Shown: positions 4,565 to 62,042 of the stretch, piece by piece | Layout: each line of letters starts with the position of its first letter | How positions within the stretch are numbered: position 1 is the first letter of the stretch | Source: Spirochaetia bacterium | Lineage (GTDB): Bacteria; Spirochaetota; Spirochaetia; UBA9216 | DNA length: 64,000 nt | Reading direction: 5' to 3' | NCBI GenBank assembly: GCA_963675665.1 | Contig: OY776510.1 | Coordinates: 2,464,001 to 2,528,000, forward strand | Notes under the pieces: generated by a model | Database searches by the model: none | Told to the model about the DNA's origin: nothing | The model's input: the letters and a program-made list of their open reading frames with translations, nothing else | Made by a program: the position numbers and the translations under genes

Positions 4565-5308
4565 TTAAAGCCTTCCGGCTTCGATTATTCTCTGTAGAAA
4601 TTGCCGCGTTCGGGGGTTTTCAGGCGATGAAAAAAGCTGCTCCGGCGGAGCTTCTTCAAGAATCCTGCCGCCGTCGAGAAAACAGACGCGATCGGCAACA
4701 TCACGGGCAAAACCCATCTCGTGGGTTACAATCAGCATGGTCATCCCCTGGTCTCTGAGACTTTTTATTACGGAAAGTACATCGCCAATAAGCTCGGGAT
4801 CGAGCGCGGCAGTTACCTCGTCGAGCAATAGCAGTTCGGGTTTTGTAGCCATGGCCCTGACAATAGCAACGCGCTGCTGCTGCCCTCCCGAAAGCTGTTC
4901 GGGGTATGATGTTGCAAACGTTTCAAGTCCGAACAAACCGAGAAGTTCAAGCGCGTAAGCCTCGCTTTCATTTTTTGAGATCCCGTGGACTTTTCGGGGA
5001 GCAAGGGTAATGTTGTCGAGCACCGTCATTGTAGGAAACAGGTTGTATGCCTGGAACACAATGCCGATCCTTTTGTACAGCTCTATTGAAGGCAGCGCCG
5101 GGTCGTGAATCGATACGCCGTCGATTTTTATTTCGCCGCTGTCGAAATCAACAAGATCATTAACACACCGTAGAAGCGTAGATTTTCCCGAACCCGAAGC
5201 ACCTATAAGACATACAACTTCGTGTTCCTTTACTTTGAGGTCCACGTCGTCAAGGACAAGTTTTTCTCCATAATATTTTGTCAGATTTTTTATTTCTATA
5301 CGGTACAT
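4565..5308 (-). CDS. Polar amino-acid ABC transporter ATP-binding protein
   Basis: GASGSGKS, LSGGQQQRVAI, LLLLDEVTAALDPEL, VTHEMGFA. Confidence 0.95.
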   Translation of the reverse strand: MYRIEIKNLTKYYGEKLVLDDVDLKVKEHEVVCLIGASGSGKSTLLRCVNDLVDFDSGEIKIDGVSIHDPALPSIELYKRIGIVFQAYNLFPTMTVLDNITLAPRKVHGISKNESEAYALELLGLFGLETFATSYPEQLSGGQQQRVAIVRAMATKPELLLLDEVTAALDPELIGDVLSVIKSLRDQGMTMLIVTHEMGFARDVADRVCFLDGGRILEEAPPEQLFSSPENPRTRQFLQRIIEAGRL

Positions 5309-6157
5309 CTATGTTGTCCTTTGCAAACGCCTTTCACGGTCTTTTGTCGTTACGTAATCGGTAAGCCTTGCCATTGGAATTGTTGCCGCAAGAAAAAGCA
5401 GCGCGGCGGCGATCAGGGTTGAATAGTTAAAGGTTCTTGCGGTGTATATCTGTGCTTCGCGCACGGCGTCCCGAATTCCCAGAACCGAAAGCAGCGCAAC
5501 GTCTTTCTGAAGCGCAACTGCAAGGTTCAGCAGCGACGGTATGACGTTTCTGATTGCCTGCGGCAGGATTGCATAACGCAGGGTCTGGCCCTGGTTGAGG
5601 CCCAGGGCTTTGGCTGCCGCGCGCTGACCGTCATGGACCGAATCCATTCCCGACCGGTATACTTCAGCGGCATAGGCTGAATAGCTTGAAATCATTGCAA
5701 GCGCTCCCCAGAACAAACTGCTTCTCGGCAGCCCCGGGATATTCAGCGCCGGCATGCCGAAACCGAAAAGAAGTACAAGCAGCAGTGAAGGAAGGCCGCG
5801 CAGAAGGTCTATATAAACTATTGAAAAAACCCTCAGCGGAGCGAACCATGGACCGTGAAGCGAACGGAATATCGCAAGCACAAGCGCCCAGACAGCAATG
5901 ACTACAAGGGCCACAGCCCAGACAGCCATATTTATGCCGAAACCGTGAAGTACCTTCGGAAAGACGTCGATAATTACATCCAGATTAAAAAATTGCGCTT
6001 TTATACGGGGCCATTGTTCAGCGCGGATTATAATTGATCTTAAAATAAAAAAAGCCGCCAGAACGGTAGCTGTACTTATAAGATGGGGAAGAATCCTTTC
6101 GCGCATTGGAAGGTTATGCCCCCTCCGCCTTTGCGGACGGGGACTTTTTAAACTCAC
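5309..6157 (-). CDS. Polar amino-acid ABC transporter permease
   Basis: YIDLLRGLP, SAYAAEVYRSG, GQRAAAKALGL EAA-like loop, ILPQAIR. Confidence 0.93.
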   Translation of the reverse strand: MSLKSPRPQRRRGHNLPMRERILPHLISTATVLAAFFILRSIIIRAEQWPRIKAQFFNLDVIIDVFPKVLHGFGINMAVWAVALVVIAVWALVLAIFRSLHGPWFAPLRVFSIVYIDLLRGLPSLLLVLLFGFGMPALNIPGLPRSSLFWGALAMISSYSAYAAEVYRSGMDSVHDGQRAAAKALGLNQGQTLRYAILPQAIRNVIPSLLNLAVALQKDVALLSVLGIRDAVREAQIYTARTFNYSTLIAAALLFLAATIPMARLTDYVTTKDRERRLQRTT

Positions 6158-7038
6158 TCCGAAATCTCCGGGATGGATTCATCGCCTATAAGATACTCGG
6201 ATGTCAGGTCGGCAACTACGCCTTTCGCAATTATTGCTTTAAGACCTTCGTTAATCCATTCTGCAAGCGGATTGCCTTTTTCAAAAATCAGTCCGTGCCC
6301 AAGGTCCTTGGGATCATGGGGCAGAATGGCCGCTACGGTTGCCTCGGGGACCTGAACGGCTGTTACAAAAAGGGCTGTAGGAAGCTCGATACAGGTCACA
6401 TCAATCTGACCGCCGAGTAATGCCTGAAAGGTGCCTATCTGATCGTTGAATACTGCAACATCGTCAACACCTATCATGTTTTCGATATAATCCAGGTCGG
6501 CTGTCCCGATGGTTGCTCCCCATTTCAGGCCCTGCAGATCCTTGAAGCTTTTGGCATTGGACGCGCCGCTTCCGGGAAGGGCTACAACTGCCTTTTCCGG
6601 TTTGTAATAAACCATGGAAAAGTCCACGAATTCCTTACGTTCCTCGGTAACGGTATACTGCTGAATATTGAAATCATAAGGTTTTGCTCCCGGAGCAATG
6701 CCCTGATCGAAGGTCTGTCTTACCCATACAACGTCTTCACTCGCAAAACCAAGCTCTTCTGCGAGTGCATAAACAAGACCGTTCTCGAATCCGATACCTG
6801 CCGCCGGATCATCATCCATCATCCACGGCGGATAAGCGGGATCTCCGGTTGCAACGGTGAGCTTGCCGGGTGTATAAAGCCTCGGATCGTTCGGTGTTTT
6901 TTCAAGTGATACTGTTTTTTCTTCTACAGATGGGGTTTCTGCAGGCGCTTTTTTCTGACAACCGGTTAGAACAAACAATGTAAGAAGGCTTGCCGCAAGC
7001 AGAATTAAAAGAATGCGTCGAGTCATGTTTTCCTCCAT
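6154..7038 (-). CDS. Amino-acid ABC transporter substrate-binding lipoprotein (SBP family 3)
   Basis: Lipobox LTGC; GKLTVAT...YPPW; TVTEERKEFVDFSMVYY; overlaps the permease start. Confidence 0.9.
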   Translation of the reverse strand: MEENMTRRILLILLAASLLTLFVLTGCQKKAPAETPSVEEKTVSLEKTPNDPRLYTPGKLTVATGDPAYPPWMMDDDPAAGIGFENGLVYALAEELGFASEDVVWVRQTFDQGIAPGAKPYDFNIQQYTVTEERKEFVDFSMVYYKPEKAVVALPGSGASNAKSFKDLQGLKWGATIGTADLDYIENMIGVDDVAVFNDQIGTFQALLGGQIDVTCIELPTALFVTAVQVPEATVAAILPHDPKDLGHGLIFEKGNPLAEWINEGLKAIIAKGVVADLTSEYLIGDESIPEISE

Positions 7039-7251
7039 AGGACTTTTTTCACAGTTTGAATAAACTGTCTGTTAAAAACAGATTAGGGGCAAATTGCGAA
7101 TTGGTCAATGATTATACTTATCAAAAAATATAAACTCCGAATAAATTTATATAGCTGTTAAAATATAAAAAAAAATTAAATTATTGTTATAATCTCAATC
7201 CTGGCTTAAAATAAATGTTGGTGTAAAATATACTTAAAAAAGGAGAAAAAA

Positions 7252-8889
7252 ATGAAAAAAGCACTAAGTATCCTTATTGTGATGCTGCTTCTGGTTACAG
7301 TAGCCGGAAACGTTTTTGCCGGCGGTAAACAGGAAGAACCTGCAGCCGGCGCCGACGCTGCAGCCCCGGCCCCCGCCGCTGTGGAGAAAGATAAAAACGG
7401 AGGTGTTCTTGTTTTCGGAAGATCCGGCGATTCAGTAGGTCTCGACCCTGCACGGGAAACTGACGGAGAATCGTATTACGGCTGTACTCAGGTATATGAC
7501 AACCTGGTAGAATTCAAGGAAGGCACAACAGAGGTTCAGCCCGCATTGGCCAAAAGCTGGGATATTTCTGCCGACGGCCTCGAGGTAATGTTTCACCTCA
7601 GAAGCGGAGTTAAATTCCACGACGGCACAGCCTTCAATGCTGATGCAGTTGTCTTTTCACTGGGCAGACAACTTTATGAAGATCATCCTTATCATGATTA
7701 CGGCCCATGGAAATACTGGGGTTACATGGATATGAGCAACATTATTCAGGATATTATCGCTGTTGACGATATGACTGTAAAATTTGTTCTGAAAAAGAAA
7801 GAAGCTCCTTTCATTGCAAACCTGGCAATGGATTTTGCCGGTATTGTTTCTCCTGCGGCAGTTGAGAAATGGGGAGAAGATTTTCCGAACCATCCTGTAG
7901 GTACCGGACCGTTCAAGTTCGTATCCTGGAAGAAGGAAGATTCGATTGTATTTGAGAAAAATGCAGATTACTGGAGGCGCCCTGCCTATCTGGACAGAGT
8001 AATCCTTAAAGTCATACCTGATGCAACAGCCAGGTACCTTGCCCTGCAGAAGGGCGAAGTTGACCTTATCGACTTTCCGTCTCCTGAAGATCTTGCCGAC
8101 ATGAAGGCTAATGCAGATATCAAGGTTATTCAGCAGGAAGGTCTTAATGTCGGTTATCTTGCATTCAACTGTGACAGGGAACCTTTCGGAGACAAACGTG
8201 TAAGGCAGGCCCTGAATTATGCGGTTAACAAAGCCGAAATAATCACAGGCGTATACGGAACAGCCGGAACTCCTGCAAAAAACCCGCTTCCGCCGACAAT
8301 GTGGTCATACAATGATTCTATTGTTGACTATGAATATAATCCTGCGAAAGCAAAAGCCCTGCTTGCCGAAGCCGGTTACCCGGACGGTTTCTCCACAACC
8401 CTATGGGCAATGCCTGTAGCAAGACCTTATAATCCTAACGGAAGAAAAGTAGCCGAGATTATGCAGGCGCATCTTGCGGAAATCGGGGTAGAAGCTGAAA
8501 TAGTTTCATACGACTGGGGAACATACCTTGAGAAAACCGATCACGGCGAACATGATATGGCCCTGCTTGGCTGGACCGGCGATAATGGTGATCCCGACAA
8601 CTTCCTATGGGTTCTTCTTTCAATTCCTGCAGCCGAAGTTCCGGCAGGAAATATTTCATTCTGGAGAAACGAAGAATTCAATAGTCTTATTAAAGATGCA
8701 AAAGAAACAATGGATGTTGCAAAACGTGAAGATCTGTATAAAAAAGCACAGGTAATTTTTCATGAAGAAGCTCCCTGGCTTCCTGTTGCACATTCTGTTG
8801 TATCGGAACCCATGCTCAATCATGTAATGGACTTTAAGCTTTCTCCTGTAGGAAAGCGTCAGTTCTATAATGTCTGGCTTGACGACTAG
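7252..8889 (+). CDS. dppA: Dipeptide ABC transporter substrate-binding protein (SBP family 5)
   Basis: Signal ending VFA-GGKQE; LAKSWDIS, FHDGTAFNADAV, PVGTGPFKF, WAMPVARPYNPN, GWTGDNGDPDNF; SD AAAGGAG. Confidence 0.93.
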   Translation: MKKALSILIVMLLLVTVAGNVFAGGKQEEPAAGADAAAPAPAAVEKDKNGGVLVFGRSGDSVGLDPARETDGESYYGCTQVYDNLVEFKEGTTEVQPALAKSWDISADGLEVMFHLRSGVKFHDGTAFNADAVVFSLGRQLYEDHPYHDYGPWKYWGYMDMSNIIQDIIAVDDMTVKFVLKKKEAPFIANLAMDFAGIVSPAAVEKWGEDFPNHPVGTGPFKFVSWKKEDSIVFEKNADYWRRPAYLDRVILKVIPDATARYLALQKGEVDLIDFPSPEDLADMKANADIKVIQQEGLNVGYLAFNCDREPFGDKRVRQALNYAVNKAEIITGVYGTAGTPAKNPLPPTMWSYNDSIVDYEYNPAKAKALLAEAGYPDGFSTTLWAMPVARPYNPNGRKVAEIMQAHLAEIGVEAEIVSYDWGTYLEKTDHGEHDMALLGWTGDNGDPDNFLWVLLSIPAAEVPAGNISFWRNEEFNSLIKDAKETMDVAKREDLYKKAQVIFHEEAPWLPVAHSVVSEPMLNHVMDFKLSPVGKRQFYNVWLDD

Positions 8890-46093: not shown

Positions 46094-47188
46094 TCAGATT
46101 TCTCCTTTGGGAAGTCTCATTTTGTCGGCACTGAGGATCCGCTCAAGCATTTCGTCCGATATTGTATGGTTGAAAAAGGTCGTATAAAAGCTTCTGGTAA
46201 TCTGTTCAATGTTTACGTCCCTGAAGCGATCCGGATAAAGCAGTTTTGCAGTCCAGACAAGCGCAAGGGGCGTTTCCATTCCACCGGGGTGCCCCCAGCG
46301 TGATATACCGATGGGTATCTGGTATACCCTGTTGTTCTGAACCGCCTTCAGGCCGGCCCATTTCTCATTTGTAAGGATGTATTCATCAACATCCTCCTGG
46401 TTTGCAATAATTACATCGGCATCCCAGAGATAAATCTGCTCAAGGGACGCAAAATACTTGTTGTCATGAAACCTGAGGGGTTCTCCGACTGAAACATTGA
46501 TAGCACCTGTTAACTCTGTCCACTCGGCAGGGAGGGTCCCCGGTGCGTCGGTCCGGACTGCCTCATTGACTGAATGGTAGACCCGGATTCTGTCTTCCGT
46601 GGGGATATCAATTACCCGGGATTCAACAAAATCAATCTGGCGCTGATAATAATTATTATAAGCCTGTGCTTTTTCCTTTTTCCCGATGACGGTTCCTATC
46701 AATTCGATCGCCTTCATCTGTTCTTCGATTGTATTGTATTCTATTACGACATAAGGCAGGTTGAACCTTTCAATTTTTTCTATTTCAGCAGGCATTTGCG
46801 CAGTGTCGCCTTTCAGAAAAATGATGTCCGGGTTCGTTTTAAGCAGTTCCTCAATATTAATAACACCGTCGTCGGACGGGGTTGCGGCTTCTTTTATAAA
46901 CGGGTTGATTTCATTGAGAAGCCTGTCGCGTTTGGAGCCGTAGACAACTGAAACAATGTCTTCGCCTCGGTCCAGCATGGTTACTACATGAACGGTAAAG
47001 GCATAGATGCATGCTATACGTTCAATCCGTCCGGGAATTTCAACCTCACGGCCGAAGCAATCTGTAACTGTCACGGAGGCAGAGGTTTCGCTCTCTGTCT
47101 CCATTTCGACCGAGCCTGAAGAAAACAGAAAGGGAACAGCAAAAACAAGCAACGCTGAAGCAAGTATCAAGACGACCGGGTTTTTCAT
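46094..47188 (-). CDS. Type II ABC importer substrate-binding protein (BtuF/FepB/MolA class)
   Basis: VTDCFGREVEIP..IERIA, NIEELLKTNPD, LKAVQNNRVY.IP..RWGHP..E..LA.VW.AK.LYPDRF. Confidence 0.88.
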   Translation of the reverse strand: MKNPVVLILASALLVFAVPFLFSSGSVEMETESETSASVTVTDCFGREVEIPGRIERIACIYAFTVHVVTMLDRGEDIVSVVYGSKRDRLLNEINPFIKEAATPSDDGVINIEELLKTNPDIIFLKGDTAQMPAEIEKIERFNLPYVVIEYNTIEEQMKAIELIGTVIGKKEKAQAYNNYYQRQIDFVESRVIDIPTEDRIRVYHSVNEAVRTDAPGTLPAEWTELTGAINVSVGEPLRFHDNKYFASLEQIYLWDADVIIANQEDVDEYILTNEKWAGLKAVQNNRVYQIPIGISRWGHPGGMETPLALVWTAKLLYPDRFRDVNIEQITRSFYTTFFNHTISDEMLERILSADKMRLPKGEI

Positions 47189-48012
47189 TTGTCGGTTTTC
47201 TCCTGTATTGTTTTAATGGGAATAATGCTTTTCAGCGTACTGTTTCCGATAATGTGGTTTGTCATTGCTGTTTCCACGCCGAATACTTTTTTCATGTTTT
47301 CCGGGTTGAGGACCCCGGAGGGCGTGCCGGTTTTGATTAGTCTTCCGTTATCAATGAGCCCGGCAGAAACAGGAATTCCGCTGTTTTCAAGAAAGAAAGC
47401 GATATAAGGGGAATGGGTTGTAAGAACTACGGAGCGTGTTCCTTCCTTGATTATATCAACTATCATTTCCAGCAGAAGCATTTCGTTTCTGAAATCAAGA
47501 TGGCTTGAGGGCTCATCCATCACAAGCAGCGGAGCTTCCTGAACCAGGGCACGCATTATTAATACCAGCTGGCTTTCTCCGCCGGAAATGCGTGTGTAGT
47601 CCCTGTTTTTCAGATGCGTCAGATTCATCTTGTCGATCAAATCCGATACGGTTTCTTTATCCTTCCTGTCGGGTGAATCAAAAAAACCCGTATAAGCTGT
47701 TCTTCCCATAAGCACTACATCAAAAACGGTGAACGGAAAATTTTTCTTGTGGTTCTGGGGAATATATGCAAGTCTCCGGGCTATCCGGGACGGCGGAAGA
47801 CCGGAAATATCGGCGCCGTCGATAACTATTTTTCCTGACCTTGGCTTGTTGATTCCGAGAAAACAATCAAGAAGGGTTGTTTTCCCGCTTCCGTTGGGGC
47901 CCAGCAGGCAGAAAACTTCCCCGCGGCTGATTTTCAGGGACACATCATGAAGCACGTCAGCCGATTCATACCCGAACGAGACGTTTTCAGCATTGAGAAT
48001 GGTCTTACTCAT
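47185..48012 (-). CDS. Type II ABC importer ATP-binding protein
   Basis: Start at MSKTILNAE (ATGA overlap with permease stop); GPNGSGKTT, ISGGESQ, MDEPSSHLD. Confidence 0.9.
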   Translation of the reverse strand: MSKTILNAENVSFGYESADVLHDVSLKISRGEVFCLLGPNGSGKTTLLDCFLGINKPRSGKIVIDGADISGLPPSRIARRLAYIPQNHKKNFPFTVFDVVLMGRTAYTGFFDSPDRKDKETVSDLIDKMNLTHLKNRDYTRISGGESQLVLIMRALVQEAPLLVMDEPSSHLDFRNEMLLLEMIVDIIKEGTRSVVLTTHSPYIAFFLENSGIPVSAGLIDNGRLIKTGTPSGVLNPENMKKVFGVETAMTNHIIGNSTLKSIIPIKTIQEKTDK

Positions 48013-49028
48013 GTCTGCCAGCCCCTGGCTTTTGTCTTTTTTAAAAGGTATATAAAGAACGGCGCACCGATAAAGGCTGTGAGTATTCCCAGGGGCAGTT
48101 CGCTGCCGGAGATCAGCCTCGACAAATCGTCGACCACAAGCAGAAAACAGCCGCCGAGCGAAAAGCTGAACGGAACAAGGTGCCGGTTGTTGCTGCCTGC
48201 AATCATTCTTCCCATATGAGGGACAATCAGCCCGACCCAGCCGATAACTCCGCTGACGCAGACTGCGCCGGCTGTCGCCAGGGTAGCGCATACAATTACA
48301 AATATTCTCGTTATCCTGATATCAACGCCAAGGGTTTGGGCTTCTTTTTCGCCCATTGCAAGGACGTTTATTCTGTACCGTACCGCGAACAGCCCTATAC
48401 AGCCTGCCGCCATCGGAATGCCCGCAAGCAGGATGTCCTTATAACGGGCTGAAGCAAGACTTCCCATAAGCCAGAAAACAATCGCCGGAAGCTGATCGTA
48501 AGGGTCGGCTATATATTTTAAAAACGACAGCGCAGCTGAAAAAAGAGAGCCTATGACTATGCCGCCGAGCACCAGGGTTATATTGGATGCTGTTTTATAG
48601 ATACGCCCGACAAACCAGCTGAACACAACCGCCAGCCCTCCGAAAAGAAATGAAAACGGGTACACTGATGGATTGCTTCCGAAAAGGATTATCGCAAGCG
48701 CCGCACCAAACCCGGAACCGTTGCTCACTCCAAGCATGCCTGAACTTACCAGCGGATTACGGAACAATCCCTGAAAGGCTGTTCCTGAAACAGCAAGACT
48801 TCCGCCGACCATAACAGCCAGAATTGCCCGGGGCAGGCGAATATAGTTGACAATTCCTGCGGTTCTGGCATCGATGCGGGTCCCGGTAAACGGGTTCAGC
48901 AGGGCTGAAAAAACATCCCTTACGGGAATGGGGTACCGCCCGAGACAAAGAGAAATAATAATCAGTATCAGGGGTGCGGCCGGAATCAGAAAATACAGAA
49001 GCCCGGGCCGCTTTTCCGCGAGTCTCAC
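48009..49028 (-). CDS. FecCD/BtuC/MolB-family ABC permease
   Basis: IRLPRA, QGLFRNPLVS..MLGVS.G, FWLMGSL, GVIGWVGLIVPH. Confidence 0.92.
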   Translation of the reverse strand: MRLAEKRPGLLYFLIPAAPLILIIISLCLGRYPIPVRDVFSALLNPFTGTRIDARTAGIVNYIRLPRAILAVMVGGSLAVSGTAFQGLFRNPLVSSGMLGVSNGSGFGAALAIILFGSNPSVYPFSFLFGGLAVVFSWFVGRIYKTASNITLVLGGIVIGSLFSAALSFLKYIADPYDQLPAIVFWLMGSLASARYKDILLAGIPMAAGCIGLFAVRYRINVLAMGEKEAQTLGVDIRITRIFVIVCATLATAGAVCVSGVIGWVGLIVPHMGRMIAGSNNRHLVPFSFSLGGCFLLVVDDLSRLISGSELPLGILTAFIGAPFFIYLLKKTKARGWQT

Positions 49029-49031
49029 TGA

Positions 49032-49451
49032 TTATTCAGCTGTAGAAAAAGATACAGTTTGTTCGGAGCCGAGCAGGCTTCCGTTTTTTGCTGTCAGATC
49101 GGGAGAAATTACTATAATATACCCGGTTCCCGCGGTTAGCGGCCGAACCGGGGTCAACGTTATGGTTCGTTTATTCTCCGGCTCGATCTGATCATCCGGA
49201 AGGTATACGTCAATTTCAATCTCCAGGCCTTCGGGATTAAGCATCCTGAAACAGCCGGAGTTGTTTTCGGCTACCGCCATGTTCACAACATTGTTGCTGA
49301 ATTCAAGCACTACCGCTGTATCTACAGGTATGCCGGCAGCGCCGTCCTGAGGATTTGAAGATTTGAAAGAAAGTGCCTTGTCGCCGGCAAATACATTGCC
49401 CGTGGCTGTAAACAGAATCAGGGCAAGCAACAATGAAATTTTTCTCAGCAT
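49032..49451 (-). CDS. Secreted single Ig-like (Big_5/SbsA-type) domain protein
   Basis: Signal ending VFA; SSNPQDGA.GIPVD...LEFSNNV, DDQI, LTAGTGY, SFST. Confidence 0.82.
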   Translation of the reverse strand: MLRKISLLLALILFTATGNVFAGDKALSFKSSNPQDGAAGIPVDTAVVLEFSNNVVNMAVAENNSGCFRMLNPEGLEIEIDVYLPDDQIEPENKRTITLTPVRPLTAGTGYIIVISPDLTAKNGSLLGSEQTVSFSTAE

Positions 49452-49494
49452 ATAATACTCCGGATTTTAATTATTTCGCAGGATGCGGAAATAA

Positions 49495-49607
49495 ATCTCC
49501 TTTCCTGACGGGAGGCTTTCGGGTTTCCCTTAAGCCCTTGCCGCGGCGACACCGCGGACCGACTGCAAATCATGGAATTAAATCGTTAGATTATGCAGTT
49601 CGGAGAT
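49495..49607 (-). ncRNA. Molybdenum-cofactor (Moco/Tuco) riboswitch
   Basis: Minus strand: ATCTCCGA..CTGCA.AATCTAA..ATGATT.TGCAG.TCGG, CCGCGG-loop-CCGCGG, AGGGCTT..GGGAAACCC..AAGCCT, CCCGTCAGGAAAGGAGAT; P1 ATCTCC/GGAGAT; matches the Moco motif as I recall it. Confidence 0.85.
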
Positions 49608-49637
49608 GATCAAGCTTATCATAGAAATCACCGGCAT

Positions 49638-51188
49638 TCAATTGATATACAAATCTTCCCCGTCAAAATAAATGCTGTAATTTTTGTTTTTACCGGACGG
49701 GTACCGTCTGAGAAATGTTTCCGGATCAGTATTTGACAGTTCGTCAAGTATTTCCGGTTTTCGGCAAAGAACAACCTGAAAGGGTTTCCCGGGATTTTGA
49801 AAGGCCTCTTCCGCAGTTCTGCTCCATCTGATCAGGCTGTCCACAACAGGAAAAAGATGATCGAGCCCTGCCCGGTGGAATTCTCTGCGGAAGAAAACGA
49901 CAGCATCTATATTCGTATTCCCGGTATATTTTTCAAATAACTCTGATGGCGTTAAAGAAAGTGCGGCTGCAGCTGTTCCAAACCATGGGAAAGCCTGCTC
50001 CCGGTTATACAGCATGTCGACGGCGGCTGTGAGTTTTTCTGCCTTTCTCATATCGCTTCGGCTGAAGCTGTTACATTCGATTAACTGGTAGGATGGAAAA
50101 CCCTCATGATGTAATCCCAGGGTTTTTGACTTTTCCGTCAGTTCTGTGCCCGGCAGAACGGATAACGGAAAAATATCAATATTGTTCGGAGAGGTGCTTA
50201 CGGCGAAATCGAGAGATTTCATGAATGATTCATAATTGTCAAACGGCAGGCCGTATATAAGATCCAGGCCGAAGGTCAGGCCGTAACCGGACATCAGTTT
50301 GCATTTTTCGAGAAATTTATTACTGTTGAGGTTTCTGTTTATTTCGGTGAGGGCAGCATTGTTTGTTGTCTGAAGTCCTATCTGGAGCGAAACATCAAGC
50401 TCTGCAAAAAGTCCGCACAGTTTTTCGGTCATCAGCTCGGCCCTGATTTCAAATGTATAATGTGCATCGGGATAATTTTTTGCGATCAATTCAAGTACAG
50501 TTTCTGCATGTTTCCGGTTGTGATTGAATGTAGGATCAAGCACCCAGATTTTTTCTATACCGTTATTTTTGAATAACTGAAGTTCCCGCTCAATCCTTTC
50601 GTTTGTAATAGTCCTTATGGTTTTATTTCCTCTCGATTCATAGCAGAATGCACAATTATACGGGCAGCCCCTTGTGATTTCCCAAAGTACGCCGTCATAT
50701 TGACGGGAGGGTGAAATAACAGCCGGGTAGGGTGATTCACTCTCTGTAAAACCGGCGGGAGGAAAGTGTAGAACGGCGGATTTCTGCCTGGGCGGATTTA
50801 AAAGGGTTTCAGCAATAAGCTTTTCCGCTTCACCGATAACGATGAAATCAAATAAACCGGTTTCGGCAAAGCGGGAGGAATCAGCGCTGGGATGGGGTCC
50901 TCCGGTAAACAGCAGCAATCTTTTATTGCTTTTTCTCAAGCCGGCGGCAATTTTTATTATTTCGGCAGAATTCCAGGTGCAGGCGGAAAAGCCGAATGCG
51001 GAGGCGCCTGTTTTCAGCAGCTCTTCTGCTGCCTTTCCAGTGTTAATCGGAAGATAATATTCTTTCATTATTACATCAAACTCAGCGGTTCCCTGATTGT
51101 GTTTCAACGCGGTTTTAATAACGGCAGCTGCCAGCGGAAACGCCGGCGGAGTTTTTTCGACATGGATGGAAATCAGAACTATAGTCAT
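49638..51188 (-). CDS. B12-binding-domain radical SAM protein
   Basis: GFSACTWN, GGPHPS, GEAE, EITRGCPYNCAFC, DPTFN, DLIYGLP. Confidence 0.9.
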   Translation of the reverse strand: MTIVLISIHVEKTPPAFPLAAAVIKTALKHNQGTAEFDVIMKEYYLPINTGKAAEELLKTGASAFGFSACTWNSAEIIKIAAGLRKSNKRLLLFTGGPHPSADSSRFAETGLFDFIVIGEAEKLIAETLLNPPRQKSAVLHFPPAGFTESESPYPAVISPSRQYDGVLWEITRGCPYNCAFCYESRGNKTIRTITNERIERELQLFKNNGIEKIWVLDPTFNHNRKHAETVLELIAKNYPDAHYTFEIRAELMTEKLCGLFAELDVSLQIGLQTTNNAALTEINRNLNSNKFLEKCKLMSGYGLTFGLDLIYGLPFDNYESFMKSLDFAVSTSPNNIDIFPLSVLPGTELTEKSKTLGLHHEGFPSYQLIECNSFSRSDMRKAEKLTAAVDMLYNREQAFPWFGTAAAALSLTPSELFEKYTGNTNIDAVVFFRREFHRAGLDHLFPVVDSLIRWSRTAEEAFQNPGKPFQVVLCRKPEILDELSNTDPETFLRRYPSGKNKNYSIYFDGEDLYIN

Positions 51189-60624: not shown

Positions 60625-61926
60625 ATGATCTGGAATGAAAAGATAGAAACAATGCCCCAGTCAGATCTTGAAAAGAAGCAGCTTGAGAGCCTGGTGAAGC
60701 TGGCTGAAACGCTGTATACAAAAGTGGAATTCTACCGAAGGAAATTTGACAAGCTCGGTGTTAAACCCTCTGATCTTCAGAGTATGAAGGATATAGCAAA
60801 GTTGCCCTTCACGACAAAGGATGAGCTTCGTGAAACTTATCCGTATGGTCTTCTTGCAATCGATGAATCGGAAATAGTTGAGATTCATCAGTCATCAGGA
60901 ACAACAGGGACCCCTGTAGTAGACGCATATACCCGGAAAGATATTGACATCTGGTCGGAAGCCATGGCCCGCTGTCTTACCATGGCCGGCGCCGGAAAGA
61001 ATGATGTTATACAGAATGCCTACGGGTACGGCCTTTTTACAGGTGGTCTCGGCGTTCATTACGGTGCACGCGCAATAGGCGCCAATGTAATACCCATTTC
61101 GGGCGGGAATACCGAGCGGCAGCTCAAGGTTATGAAAGACTTCGGCTCCACATTTTTAACCTGTACCCCGTCCTATTCGCTTTATATTGCCGAGTTTGCC
61201 GCGGAAAGCGGAATTCCCATGAAGGACATGAAACTGAAAGCCGGTGCATTCGGCGCCGAACCGTGGACGGAAGAAATGCGCAAAGAAATGGAAGCGCAGC
61301 TTCAGCTTGATGCTTTCGACATTTACGGATTAACCGAGATTATAGGACCGGGTGTTGCAAATGAATGTGAATGCAAGGACGGGCTTCATGTTAATGAAGA
61401 CCTTTTCTACCCTGAAATAATTGATCCTGAAACAGGTGAACCGCTGCCGGACGGTGAAAAAGGCGAGCTTGTTTTTACTACGCTGACCAAGGAGGGAACT
61501 CCTATTCTGCGTTACCGGACACGCGATATAACCTATCTTACACGCGGTAAGTGCGCCTGCGGCCGAACCAGCGTAAAAATGCATAGACTTATGGGCAGAA
61601 CCGATGATATGCTTATAATACGCGGGGTAAATGTATTCCCGACCCAGATAGAGGAGATTCTGGTCCAGATGGAAGAGACACAGCCTCACTATCAGATCGT
61701 TGTCGACCGCGGACAGAAACACCTTGACGAAGTTGAGGTTTGGGTTGAGGTTAAAGACGAGTTCTTTTCGGATGAAACCAAGATGATGGAGAGCCTCAGG
61801 GCCCGGATTGATCATGAGATGAAAAGCCGGCTTGGAATTCATGCGAAAATCAAGCTTGTTGAGCCGAAATCAATTGAACGAAGCATAGGGAAGGCAAAAC
61901 GCGTTATCGACAAGCGTAATCTTTAG
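60625..61926 (+). CDS. paaK: Phenylacetate--CoA ligase (second paralog)
   Basis: [64 protein letters not shown]. Confidence 0.93.
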
Positions 61927-62042
61927 GAGGAATGATAAAAACACCTCCGTGTGTTTTTATCATTTTAAAGTTTGATAAGCGTCGCTCATCAAACTTCCGC
62001 TCTTTCAGCCCGCATCCTTGCGGGAATTTTTTATAGGAGGAA
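61924..62042. mobile_element. MITE-like three-hairpin element flanked by 9-bp direct repeats TAGGAGGAA
   Basis: Direct repeats at 61924-61932 and 62034-62042; stems at 61931-61964, 61968-61996, 62009-62024. Confidence 0.55.

Follow-up and report, generated by a model that had tools for sequence, protein, structure and literature searches.

We analysed a 64,000-nt stretch of a Spirochaetia bacterium genome (contig OY776510.1, positions 2,464,001 to 2,528,000; below, the window is this whole stretch), in which an RNA of the molybdenum cofactor (Moco) type precedes an operon encoding an immunoglobulin-like (Ig) protein and a type II importer of the ATP-binding cassette (ABC) family. The RNA was identified by a covariance-model search (cmscan, Rfam) as a match to RF01055 at 49481..49617 on the minus strand, covering the full model length (positions 1-135 of 135) with 58.3 bits (gathering score 36, E = 2.2e-11). 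An earlier note on this DNA, made from the sequence alone, had described a complete Moco-type RNA here and had named such a search as the check; the match is above the gathering score, and all the described elements are visible in its alignment: P1 (AUCUCC/GGAGAU), P2 with the CUAA...AUG receptor bulge, a 6-bp P3 hairpin, P4 capped by a GNRA tetraloop (GAAA), and the conserved core CCUCCCG...GGAAAGGAG. Four open reading frames (ORFs) follow downstream on the same strand. The first encodes a secreted Ig-fold protein (49032..49451; 139 residues, Big_5, a CopC-like beta-sandwich with a signal peptide and no histidine), followed by a MolB-like type II (FecCD) permease (48009..49028; 339 residues, GTG start), an ABC ATPase (47185..48012; 275 residues, read from an internal start of a 368-residue ORF) and a periplasmic binding protein (46094..47188; 364 residues, Peripla_BP_2, MolA/4ovk neighbourhood, with a signal peptide and no lipobox). 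By their coordinates, the first two genes are 3 nt apart and each of the two following junctions is an overlap of 4 nt (ATGA), and the Pfam matches (Big_5, E = 1.5e-12; FecCD, 6.7e-88; ABC_tran, 9.5e-31; Peripla_BP_2, 2e-17) agree with the four-gene operon that the note had read from the sequence.

The type of the importer was assessed by comparison with solved structures and curated families. The permease is closest to MolB (HI1471, PDB 2nq2; 227.7 bits, E = 2e-66), ahead of HmuU (176.7 bits), FhuB (159.6) and BtuC (129). As a control, one distant FecCD paralogue of the same genome that has no riboswitch is nearest to HmuU (172 bits versus 145 for MolB), and the permease of a second Moco-led paralogue is again nearest to MolB (248.6 bits). 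The binding protein has its best match in the uncharacterised 4ovk (E = 2e-33), followed by MolA (HI1472; 3.2e-30), and a profile of six orthologous binding proteins matches MolA with E = 1.6e-41, where MolA again ranks second behind 4ovk. The NCBIfam equivalogs for B12, haem and siderophore transport all remain far below their curated cut-offs, the permease reaching at best 212 bits of the 461 required for BtuC, and the binding protein at most 40 bits for equivalogs with cut-offs of 205-450. By these sequence comparisons the importer belongs to the neighbourhood of MolBC-A (HI1470-72) and not to those of the B12, haem or siderophore importers, in line with the earlier warning that an automatic iron/B12 label would be wrong for this operon.

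The Ig protein contains the residues NNVVN, C and DDQI singled out in the note, and the family signature is N-V-V-N...C...DDQ...KNG. Ten positions are invariant in all 43 single-domain members (F51, N54, V55, N57, N64, D86, D87, Q88, K122 and F135); C67 is kept in 40 of them, replaced in three, and accompanied by an acidic DDQ-E-P-E loop. The predicted structure (pLDDT 89.5, from an 11-sequence alignment) is a beta-sandwich with one inserted helix, and the loop alternation in the strand order of the model would place the invariant residues at one end of the sandwich. The top Foldseek match is the copper chaperone CopC (2c9r; E = 7.2e-6, TM 0.82 on the target), followed by other bacterial Ig domains. 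In an exhaustive structural search (VIA), CopC (Z 12.1-12.5, root-mean-square deviation 1.7-2.0 over 96-97 residues) is tied with an amylase N-domain (Z 12.9) and with the Ig domains of LdtMt2 and SbsC; NEAT domains are absent from these lists of fold matches, which excludes nothing. In the ESM Atlas, only Big_5 clusters were found for this protein.

Thus, in being a small secreted beta-sandwich with a best or tied-best fold match to CopC, the Ig protein resembles the CopC/PcoC chaperones, which likewise serve a metal pathway. In contrast to CopC, its mature form contains no histidine, the Pfam CopC family is not matched and the sequence similarity is insignificant (E = 0.84). The copper ligands of CopC form a histidine-based site, hence a copper site of this type cannot exist here. 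A word-indexed search returned six relatives, which is an underestimate, and an exhaustive hidden Markov model search with thresholds of E <= 1e-30 and E <= 1e-10 returned 394 and 1507 cluster representatives, respectively, although these include giant multi-repeat Big_5 proteins and 394 is not a family size. Clostridial forms begin with a glycine-rich stretch, contain a low-complexity linker and are anchored to the membrane at the C-terminus, in contrast to the free spirochaete forms; both would be expected of a protein acting outside the membrane. On sequence grounds we regard the Ig protein as the representative of a conserved, unnamed family.

For comparison, 14 additional loci were assembled, of which reference genomes supplied 5, members of the genus 2 and metagenomes 7 (individual loci are denoted by L numbers). 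In 13 of the 14, from two phyla, the Ig gene adjoins homologues of the permease, ATPase and binding-protein genes; the fourteenth is a 2.1-kb contig with the Ig gene alone. The Ig-linked binding proteins are 38-74% identical to that of the window, compared with 23-27% for the other Moco-led paralogues of the window's genome. In the second copy present in L031, a single ORF encodes a signal peptide, an Ig domain, a six-residue linker and a binding protein without a signal peptide of its own. This fusion (P0059) is on record on two contigs and is the sole fusion among 10 matches; in its predicted fold (mixed alignment) the binding-protein part is confident, and the Ig part has pLDDT 28-61 over residues 1-140, being uninformative about the interface. 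The note had seen in the secreted Ig protein an undescribed subunit of the importer, and the conserved neighbourhood together with the natural fusion supports the partnership by context, the capture role proposed for it being a further step. Hence, as far as gene context can tell, the Ig protein is likely a previously undescribed partner of this importer.

The cassette is extended in some of the loci. The riboswitches of L022 and L034 are immediately followed by a gene for a wall-anchored SLH protein with a weak Big_5 tail, below the Pfam cut-off, so that three extracytoplasmic tiers are present: the SLH protein, a membrane-anchored Ig protein and a lipoprotein binding protein. A further gene, whose product is a distant relative of both the TiaS kinase domain and methanogenesis marker 11, is present in nine loci. 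A lone homologue of this gene exists in the window's genome (L024, 7480-8379, minus strand; 36-43% identity), far from the operon and beside an IS110-family transposase. Among spirochaetes the Ig gene is patchy: two of the five other genomes in the genus have it, and it was not found in 35 further relatives or in 400 genomes sampled across the phylum, a distribution that fits acquisition from Bacillota. No metallophore biosynthesis genes were seen in the loci read. In L032, a second Ig gene (6627-7459, plus strand) is split into ORFs 6627-6914 and 6989-7459 and is probably a frameshifted or decaying duplicate.

The co-occurrence of the Ig family, this importer clade and the Moco RNA, suggested earlier as a check, holds for the importer nearly everywhere and for the RNA in about half of the loci. 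Of the 15 loci, 7 (the window, L020, L022, L028, L031, L032 and L034) are preceded by a same-strand RF01055 match, and these include members of both Spirochaetota and Bacillota. In genome G403 of the same genus the aptamer is missing, and the 61-nt spacer (L029, 6718-6778) keeps the 5' flank (CATGAT...) and a ribosome-binding site; thus, the riboswitch was either lost or gained within the genus. The link between the RNA and such importers is already on record as data, since Regulski et al. (2008; PMC2408646) include, in their supplement, Moco RNAs that precede FecCD-FepC-TroA_e genes of Desulfitobacterium, Moorella and Syntrophomonas. Our literature search retrieved no paper naming MolBC together with the Moco riboswitch, and no description of the Ig partner. 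Thus, the Moco RNA-FecCD link was known, and the new element is that an importer of the MolBC-A type has an Ig-fold partner dedicated to it and stands under control of Moco or the tungsten cofactor (Wco).

We also considered whether the RNA subclass indicates the metal. According to Regulski et al. (2008; PMC2408646), the motif senses the cofactor, and a P3 stem marks the Moco-type rather than the tungsten-cofactor (Tuco) type subclass. The 6-bp P3 of the window RNA is hence a Moco-type feature, and P3 is also present in L028, whereas it is lacking in the other 5 of the 7 cassette RNAs; by the correlation given in that paper, the cassette would be served more often by the tungsten-type than by the molybdenum-type RNA. 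As a marker of molybdenum versus tungsten the P3 rule was rejected, because P3 is mixed among the cassettes and a P3-type RNA of the window's genome leads a WtpA-type system. The metal is not fixed by this rule.

As to the expression platform, the ribosome-binding site of the Ig gene (GGAG, 49458..49461, minus strand, 6 nt before the ATG) is situated outside P1, with a 24-nt hairpin and a second GGAG in between. Thus, the window RNA is like the known Moco motif in its full-length match with P3, and unlike it in that the ribosome-binding site is not in P1; the orthologous cassettes differ from the motif in mostly lacking P3. The hairpin (49471..49494, minus strand; about -6.0 kcal/mol) immediately follows P1, and its tail (UUAAAAU) is weak. 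The left arm of the hairpin can alternatively pair with the 3' core of the aptamer (-12.1 kcal/mol), the two hairpins being mutually exclusive, and we consider this a candidate weak terminator with an anti-terminator, albeit with a poor tail. In homologous loci true terminators are found at this place: L031 and L034 each have one behind the aptamer, and inspection by eye shows one in L032, a locus for which the terminator tool made no call. In L020 and L028, the ribosome-binding site lies within the 3' strand of P1. The platforms of L020, L028, L031 and L034 are of the OFF kind, and we infer that the riboswitch of the window is probably an OFF switch, too.

The genome (5.15 Mb) contains 11 RF01055 matches, three of them with P3 (the window, L011 and L018), and seven FecCD permeases. 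Five of these permeases are mutually closest (44-52% identity), and they are exactly the five Moco-led ones; the two distant permeases are not among the 11 RF01055 matches, and for one of these two loci a separate scan yielded no Rfam match. Other Moco RNAs lead a WtpA-type system, a TupA-like system, an AOR gene with ferredoxin, an aldehyde dehydrogenase, purine genes, and the gene of a binding protein together with that of an Oxidored_molyb protein. MoaA, MoaC and two MoeA proteins are encoded in the genome, which has 16 AOR-family (AFOR_N) genes versus one enzyme of the bis-pyranopterin guanine dinucleotide (bis-PGD) type. The canonical Mod/Wtp/Tup systems coexist with the MolBC-type importer. 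The organism has a very large demand for pterin cofactors, and the operon is a part of its molybdenum/tungsten (Mo/W) regulon. Five of five other named carriers of the cassette have both AOR and ModA. Eleven RF01055 matches and 16 AOR-family genes in 5.15 Mb make an unusually large tungsten/pterin regulon. In another Moco-led FecCD operon, the first gene (L009, 616-1926, plus strand) encodes a 436-residue protein whose C-terminal half matches WtpA/SBP_bac_11 and whose N-terminal 180 residues have no Pfam match; this may be a cytoplasmic Mo/W-sensing protein.

We interpret the locus as a Mo/W supply operon, in which a Moco riboswitch is placed over a MolBC-A-type importer with an extra extracytoplasmic subunit of the Ig fold, and assign this reading a probability of about 0.6. 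If it is correct, the Moco-sensing riboswitch would govern the type II importer, and the CopC-fold Ig domain would work with the binding protein, most likely catching or presenting Mo/W species before the binding protein takes over. MolBC-A of Haemophilus influenzae is, according to Rice et al. (2014; PMC4031551), a low-affinity type II importer of molybdate and tungstate, the regulation of which is poorly understood (structures 2nq2, 3psa and 3psh). The system of the window is similar to MolBC-A in that its permease has MolB as the best solved match, its binding protein is homologous to MolA, and it coexists with Mod/Wtp/Tup as MolBC-A does with ModBC-A. It differs by the absent MolA contact residues (see below), the extra Ig-fold gene and the control by a Moco riboswitch; orthologous cassettes differ further by the TiaS-kinase-domain-like gene.

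Several findings weigh against this reading. According to a preprint (bioRxiv 10.64898/2026.10.15.759412), K221 and R264 of MolA coordinate the ligand, and Y114 and Y301 are pocket residues. None of these four oxyanion-contact residues is kept in the binding-protein family of the window: with an inferred offset of 21 between the chain numbering and that of the paper, Y114 aligns to a variable column and K221 to T/S, R264 falls either in a variable column or in an insertion, and Y301 is matched by the invariant H300. The family has its own invariant His, Arg and Glu residues, including the motif GISRWGH...ETPLA. The best solved relatives of the binding protein, 4ovk and 4hn9, are uncharacterised, and a Foldseek comparison with the binding-protein part taken from an orthologue gives as structural neighbours 4ovk, 4hn9, MolA (rank 4), 4pag, CeuE (which binds Ni-histidine) and YiuA (Fe-catecholate). 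Eight of the 15 loci have no Moco RNA, one of them in a genome of the same genus, although some of these loci have little upstream sequence. In the permease tree (18 rows) the deep forks are open, and the Ig-linked importers form one clade in 30% of bootstrap trees, hence we do not claim their monophyly. Finally, the expression platform of the window itself is ambiguous: its hairpin has a weak tail and was not called by the terminator scan, and constrained folds of the leader show no clear masking of the ribosome-binding site. As its exposure was inconsistent between the folds (with and without enforced P1, for three assumed 5' ends), they were not used to decide between ON and OFF.

We consider it quite likely that the cargo is some Mo or W species, and slightly short of an even chance that it is the free oxyanion. 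Since both MolA-type oxyanion binders and binders of metal complexes are among the structural neighbours, an oxyanion and a small metal complex are both possible. Of the options named earlier (a Mo/W oxyanion, the cofactor or a metallophore), none is singled out by the absent MolA residues and the mixed neighbours, and salvage of the cofactor is not needed.

If the cargo were a metal complex or a thio-form (a Mo/W-catecholate, another metallophore complex, thiomolybdate or thiotungstate), with the Ig domain as its first receptor, the loss of the oxyanion-contact residues would be expected, and so would the similarity to Helicobacter pylori CeuE (Ni-histidine) and to YiuA (Fe-catecholate fragments). 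Type II importers usually carry chelates, and thiomolybdate and thiotungstate occur in sulfidic habitats. The largely conserved C67 with its acidic loop could serve such a ligand, and the low identity of the binding proteins of the five paralogous importers (23-27%) suggests that these importers take up different chemical forms. On the other hand, the loci contain no metallophore biosynthesis genes as far as they were read, and the cysteine is replaced in three of the 43 Ig members; we therefore see this explanation as rather unlikely, yet as the strongest of the rivals.

Another possibility is that the system salvages the cofactor or a pterin precursor from the surroundings, i.e., Moco, Wco, molybdopterin (MPT) or cyclic pyranopterin monophosphate (cPMP). 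In favour of this, the riboswitch senses the cofactor (PMC2408646), the oxyanion residues of MolA are missing, and the TiaS-kinase-domain-like enzyme of orthologous cassettes could process an imported organic molecule. Salvage is, however, not required, as MoaC is encoded in all six complete genomes examined (that of the window, which also has MoaA and two MoeA, and 5/5 other named carriers); ModA is present in 5/5 carriers, and the permease is nearest to MolB, whose substrate is small. These observations make salvage improbable.

The Ig protein could also be a passenger, for instance a surface or cell-wall protein that shares the transcript and has no role in transport. Big_5 domains are indeed common in surface proteins, and the fold matches include Ig domains of S-layer proteins and L,D-transpeptidases besides CopC. 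A passenger would hardly accompany one and the same type of importer in 13 of the 14 further loci, from two phyla, be fused in frame to a binding protein deprived of its own signal peptide, and retain a polar signature in 43 of 43 members, and we hold this explanation to be very improbable. An ordinary iron, haem or B12 importer with an incidental riboswitch, for which only the generic family names FecCD and Peripla_BP_2 and the below-cut-off NCBIfam matches to BtuC and FecD speak, can practically be dismissed, as RF01055 precedes the cassette in 7/15 loci of two phyla, all five closest paralogues follow a Moco RNA and neither of the two distant ones is represented among the RF01055 matches, and the permease is nearest to MolB with the control paralogue nearest to HmuU.

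Returning to the Mo/W supply operon, the additional genes of the orthologous cassettes allow for a more far-reaching and doubtful extension, in which Mo/W would pass through a relay in the cell envelope with the Ig domain as its working part. In the Isd haem relay of Staphylococcus, NEAT-domain receptors pass haem to the IsdE-IsdF type II importer. By analogy, a Mo/W species might be handed from the wall-anchored SLH Ig-like protein to the membrane-tethered or periplasmic Ig protein and on to the binding protein; such a relay would collect forms missed by plain oxyanion binders, such as the thio-forms or complexes of sulfidic sediments and guts, and the cytoplasmic TiaS-kinase-domain-like enzyme might process the imported species with ATP. 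The analogy to Isd concerns the layout: Ig-like extracytoplasmic domains are encoded together with a Peripla_BP_2/FecCD importer, in three tiers in L022 and L034. It does not extend to the components, as neither sequence nor fold was seen to relate the Ig protein to NEAT domains and the cargo is unrelated, and the transfer between the tiers is pure conjecture. If true, the relay would represent a new class of metal-capture proteins and, for tungsten-hungry anaerobes, a new way into the synthesis of Moco/Wco.

Directly upstream of the operon lies a gene for a B12-binding radical SAM protein (49638..51188, minus strand; about 516 residues). Each of the three loci from the genus has such a gene in this position (the window; L028, 1419-2768; L029, 6779-8338), and in two of the three it ends about 20 nt before the riboswitch; its link to the transport system is uncertain. 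The note had read the hexamer TATGAT (49618..49623, minus strand) as a -10 box. The hexamer is present, and relatives have CATGAT and CATGGT at its place, but it was not called in the promoter scan and no -35 hexamer is seen at 16-18 nt, so that this assignment gained no support. As the radical SAM gene of the window ends only 20 nt before the aptamer, read-through transcription from this gene and a separate start at TATGAT are equally possible.

Some further observations concern the surroundings of these operons. Radical SAM genes are also present in three other Moco-led FecCD operons of the genome (L011, L013 and L017). A TD-2 RNA (RF03162) matches the window at 61927-62025 on the minus strand (50.1 bits, gathering score 48.7) and abuts the 3' end of a gene for an AMP-binding enzyme on the opposite strand (60625-61926, plus strand); another TD-2 RNA (L012, 8921-9019, plus strand; 63.6 bits) lies in antisense orientation over the end of the Moco RNA preceding the AOR operon. 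Just upstream of the Moco RNA of the L032 cassette there is a gene of the amino-acid-kinase family (4638-5474, plus strand), which may be related to the system; the molybdenum storage protein shares the fold of this family. Metagenome contigs bearing the cassette also contain a NiCo riboswitch (L031, 11642-11720, plus strand) and a c-di-AMP riboswitch (L034, 2910-3043, plus strand).

Anaerobes relying on tungsten or molybdenum enzymes must gather metals present at trace levels. To our knowledge, only three oxyanion ABC systems (Mod, Wtp and Tup) and the low-affinity MolBC-A have been described for Mo/W uptake. Here, relatives of MolBC-A stand under the riboswitch of the cofactor itself five times in one genome, and one importer subfamily has a dedicated, strongly conserved Ig partner and, elsewhere, an ATP-using enzyme as well. 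This provides a correction for the routine labelling of such operons as iron/B12 ABC transporters. It also offers a regulatory logic for the MolBC-type importers, whose regulation in Haemophilus is described as poorly understood (PMC4031551). The 139-residue Ig domain and the 364-residue binding protein are small soluble proteins with which the form of Mo or W taken up may be tested, and their association, which recurs in many anaerobes, suggests a previously undescribed capture step in the uptake of molybdenum or tungsten.

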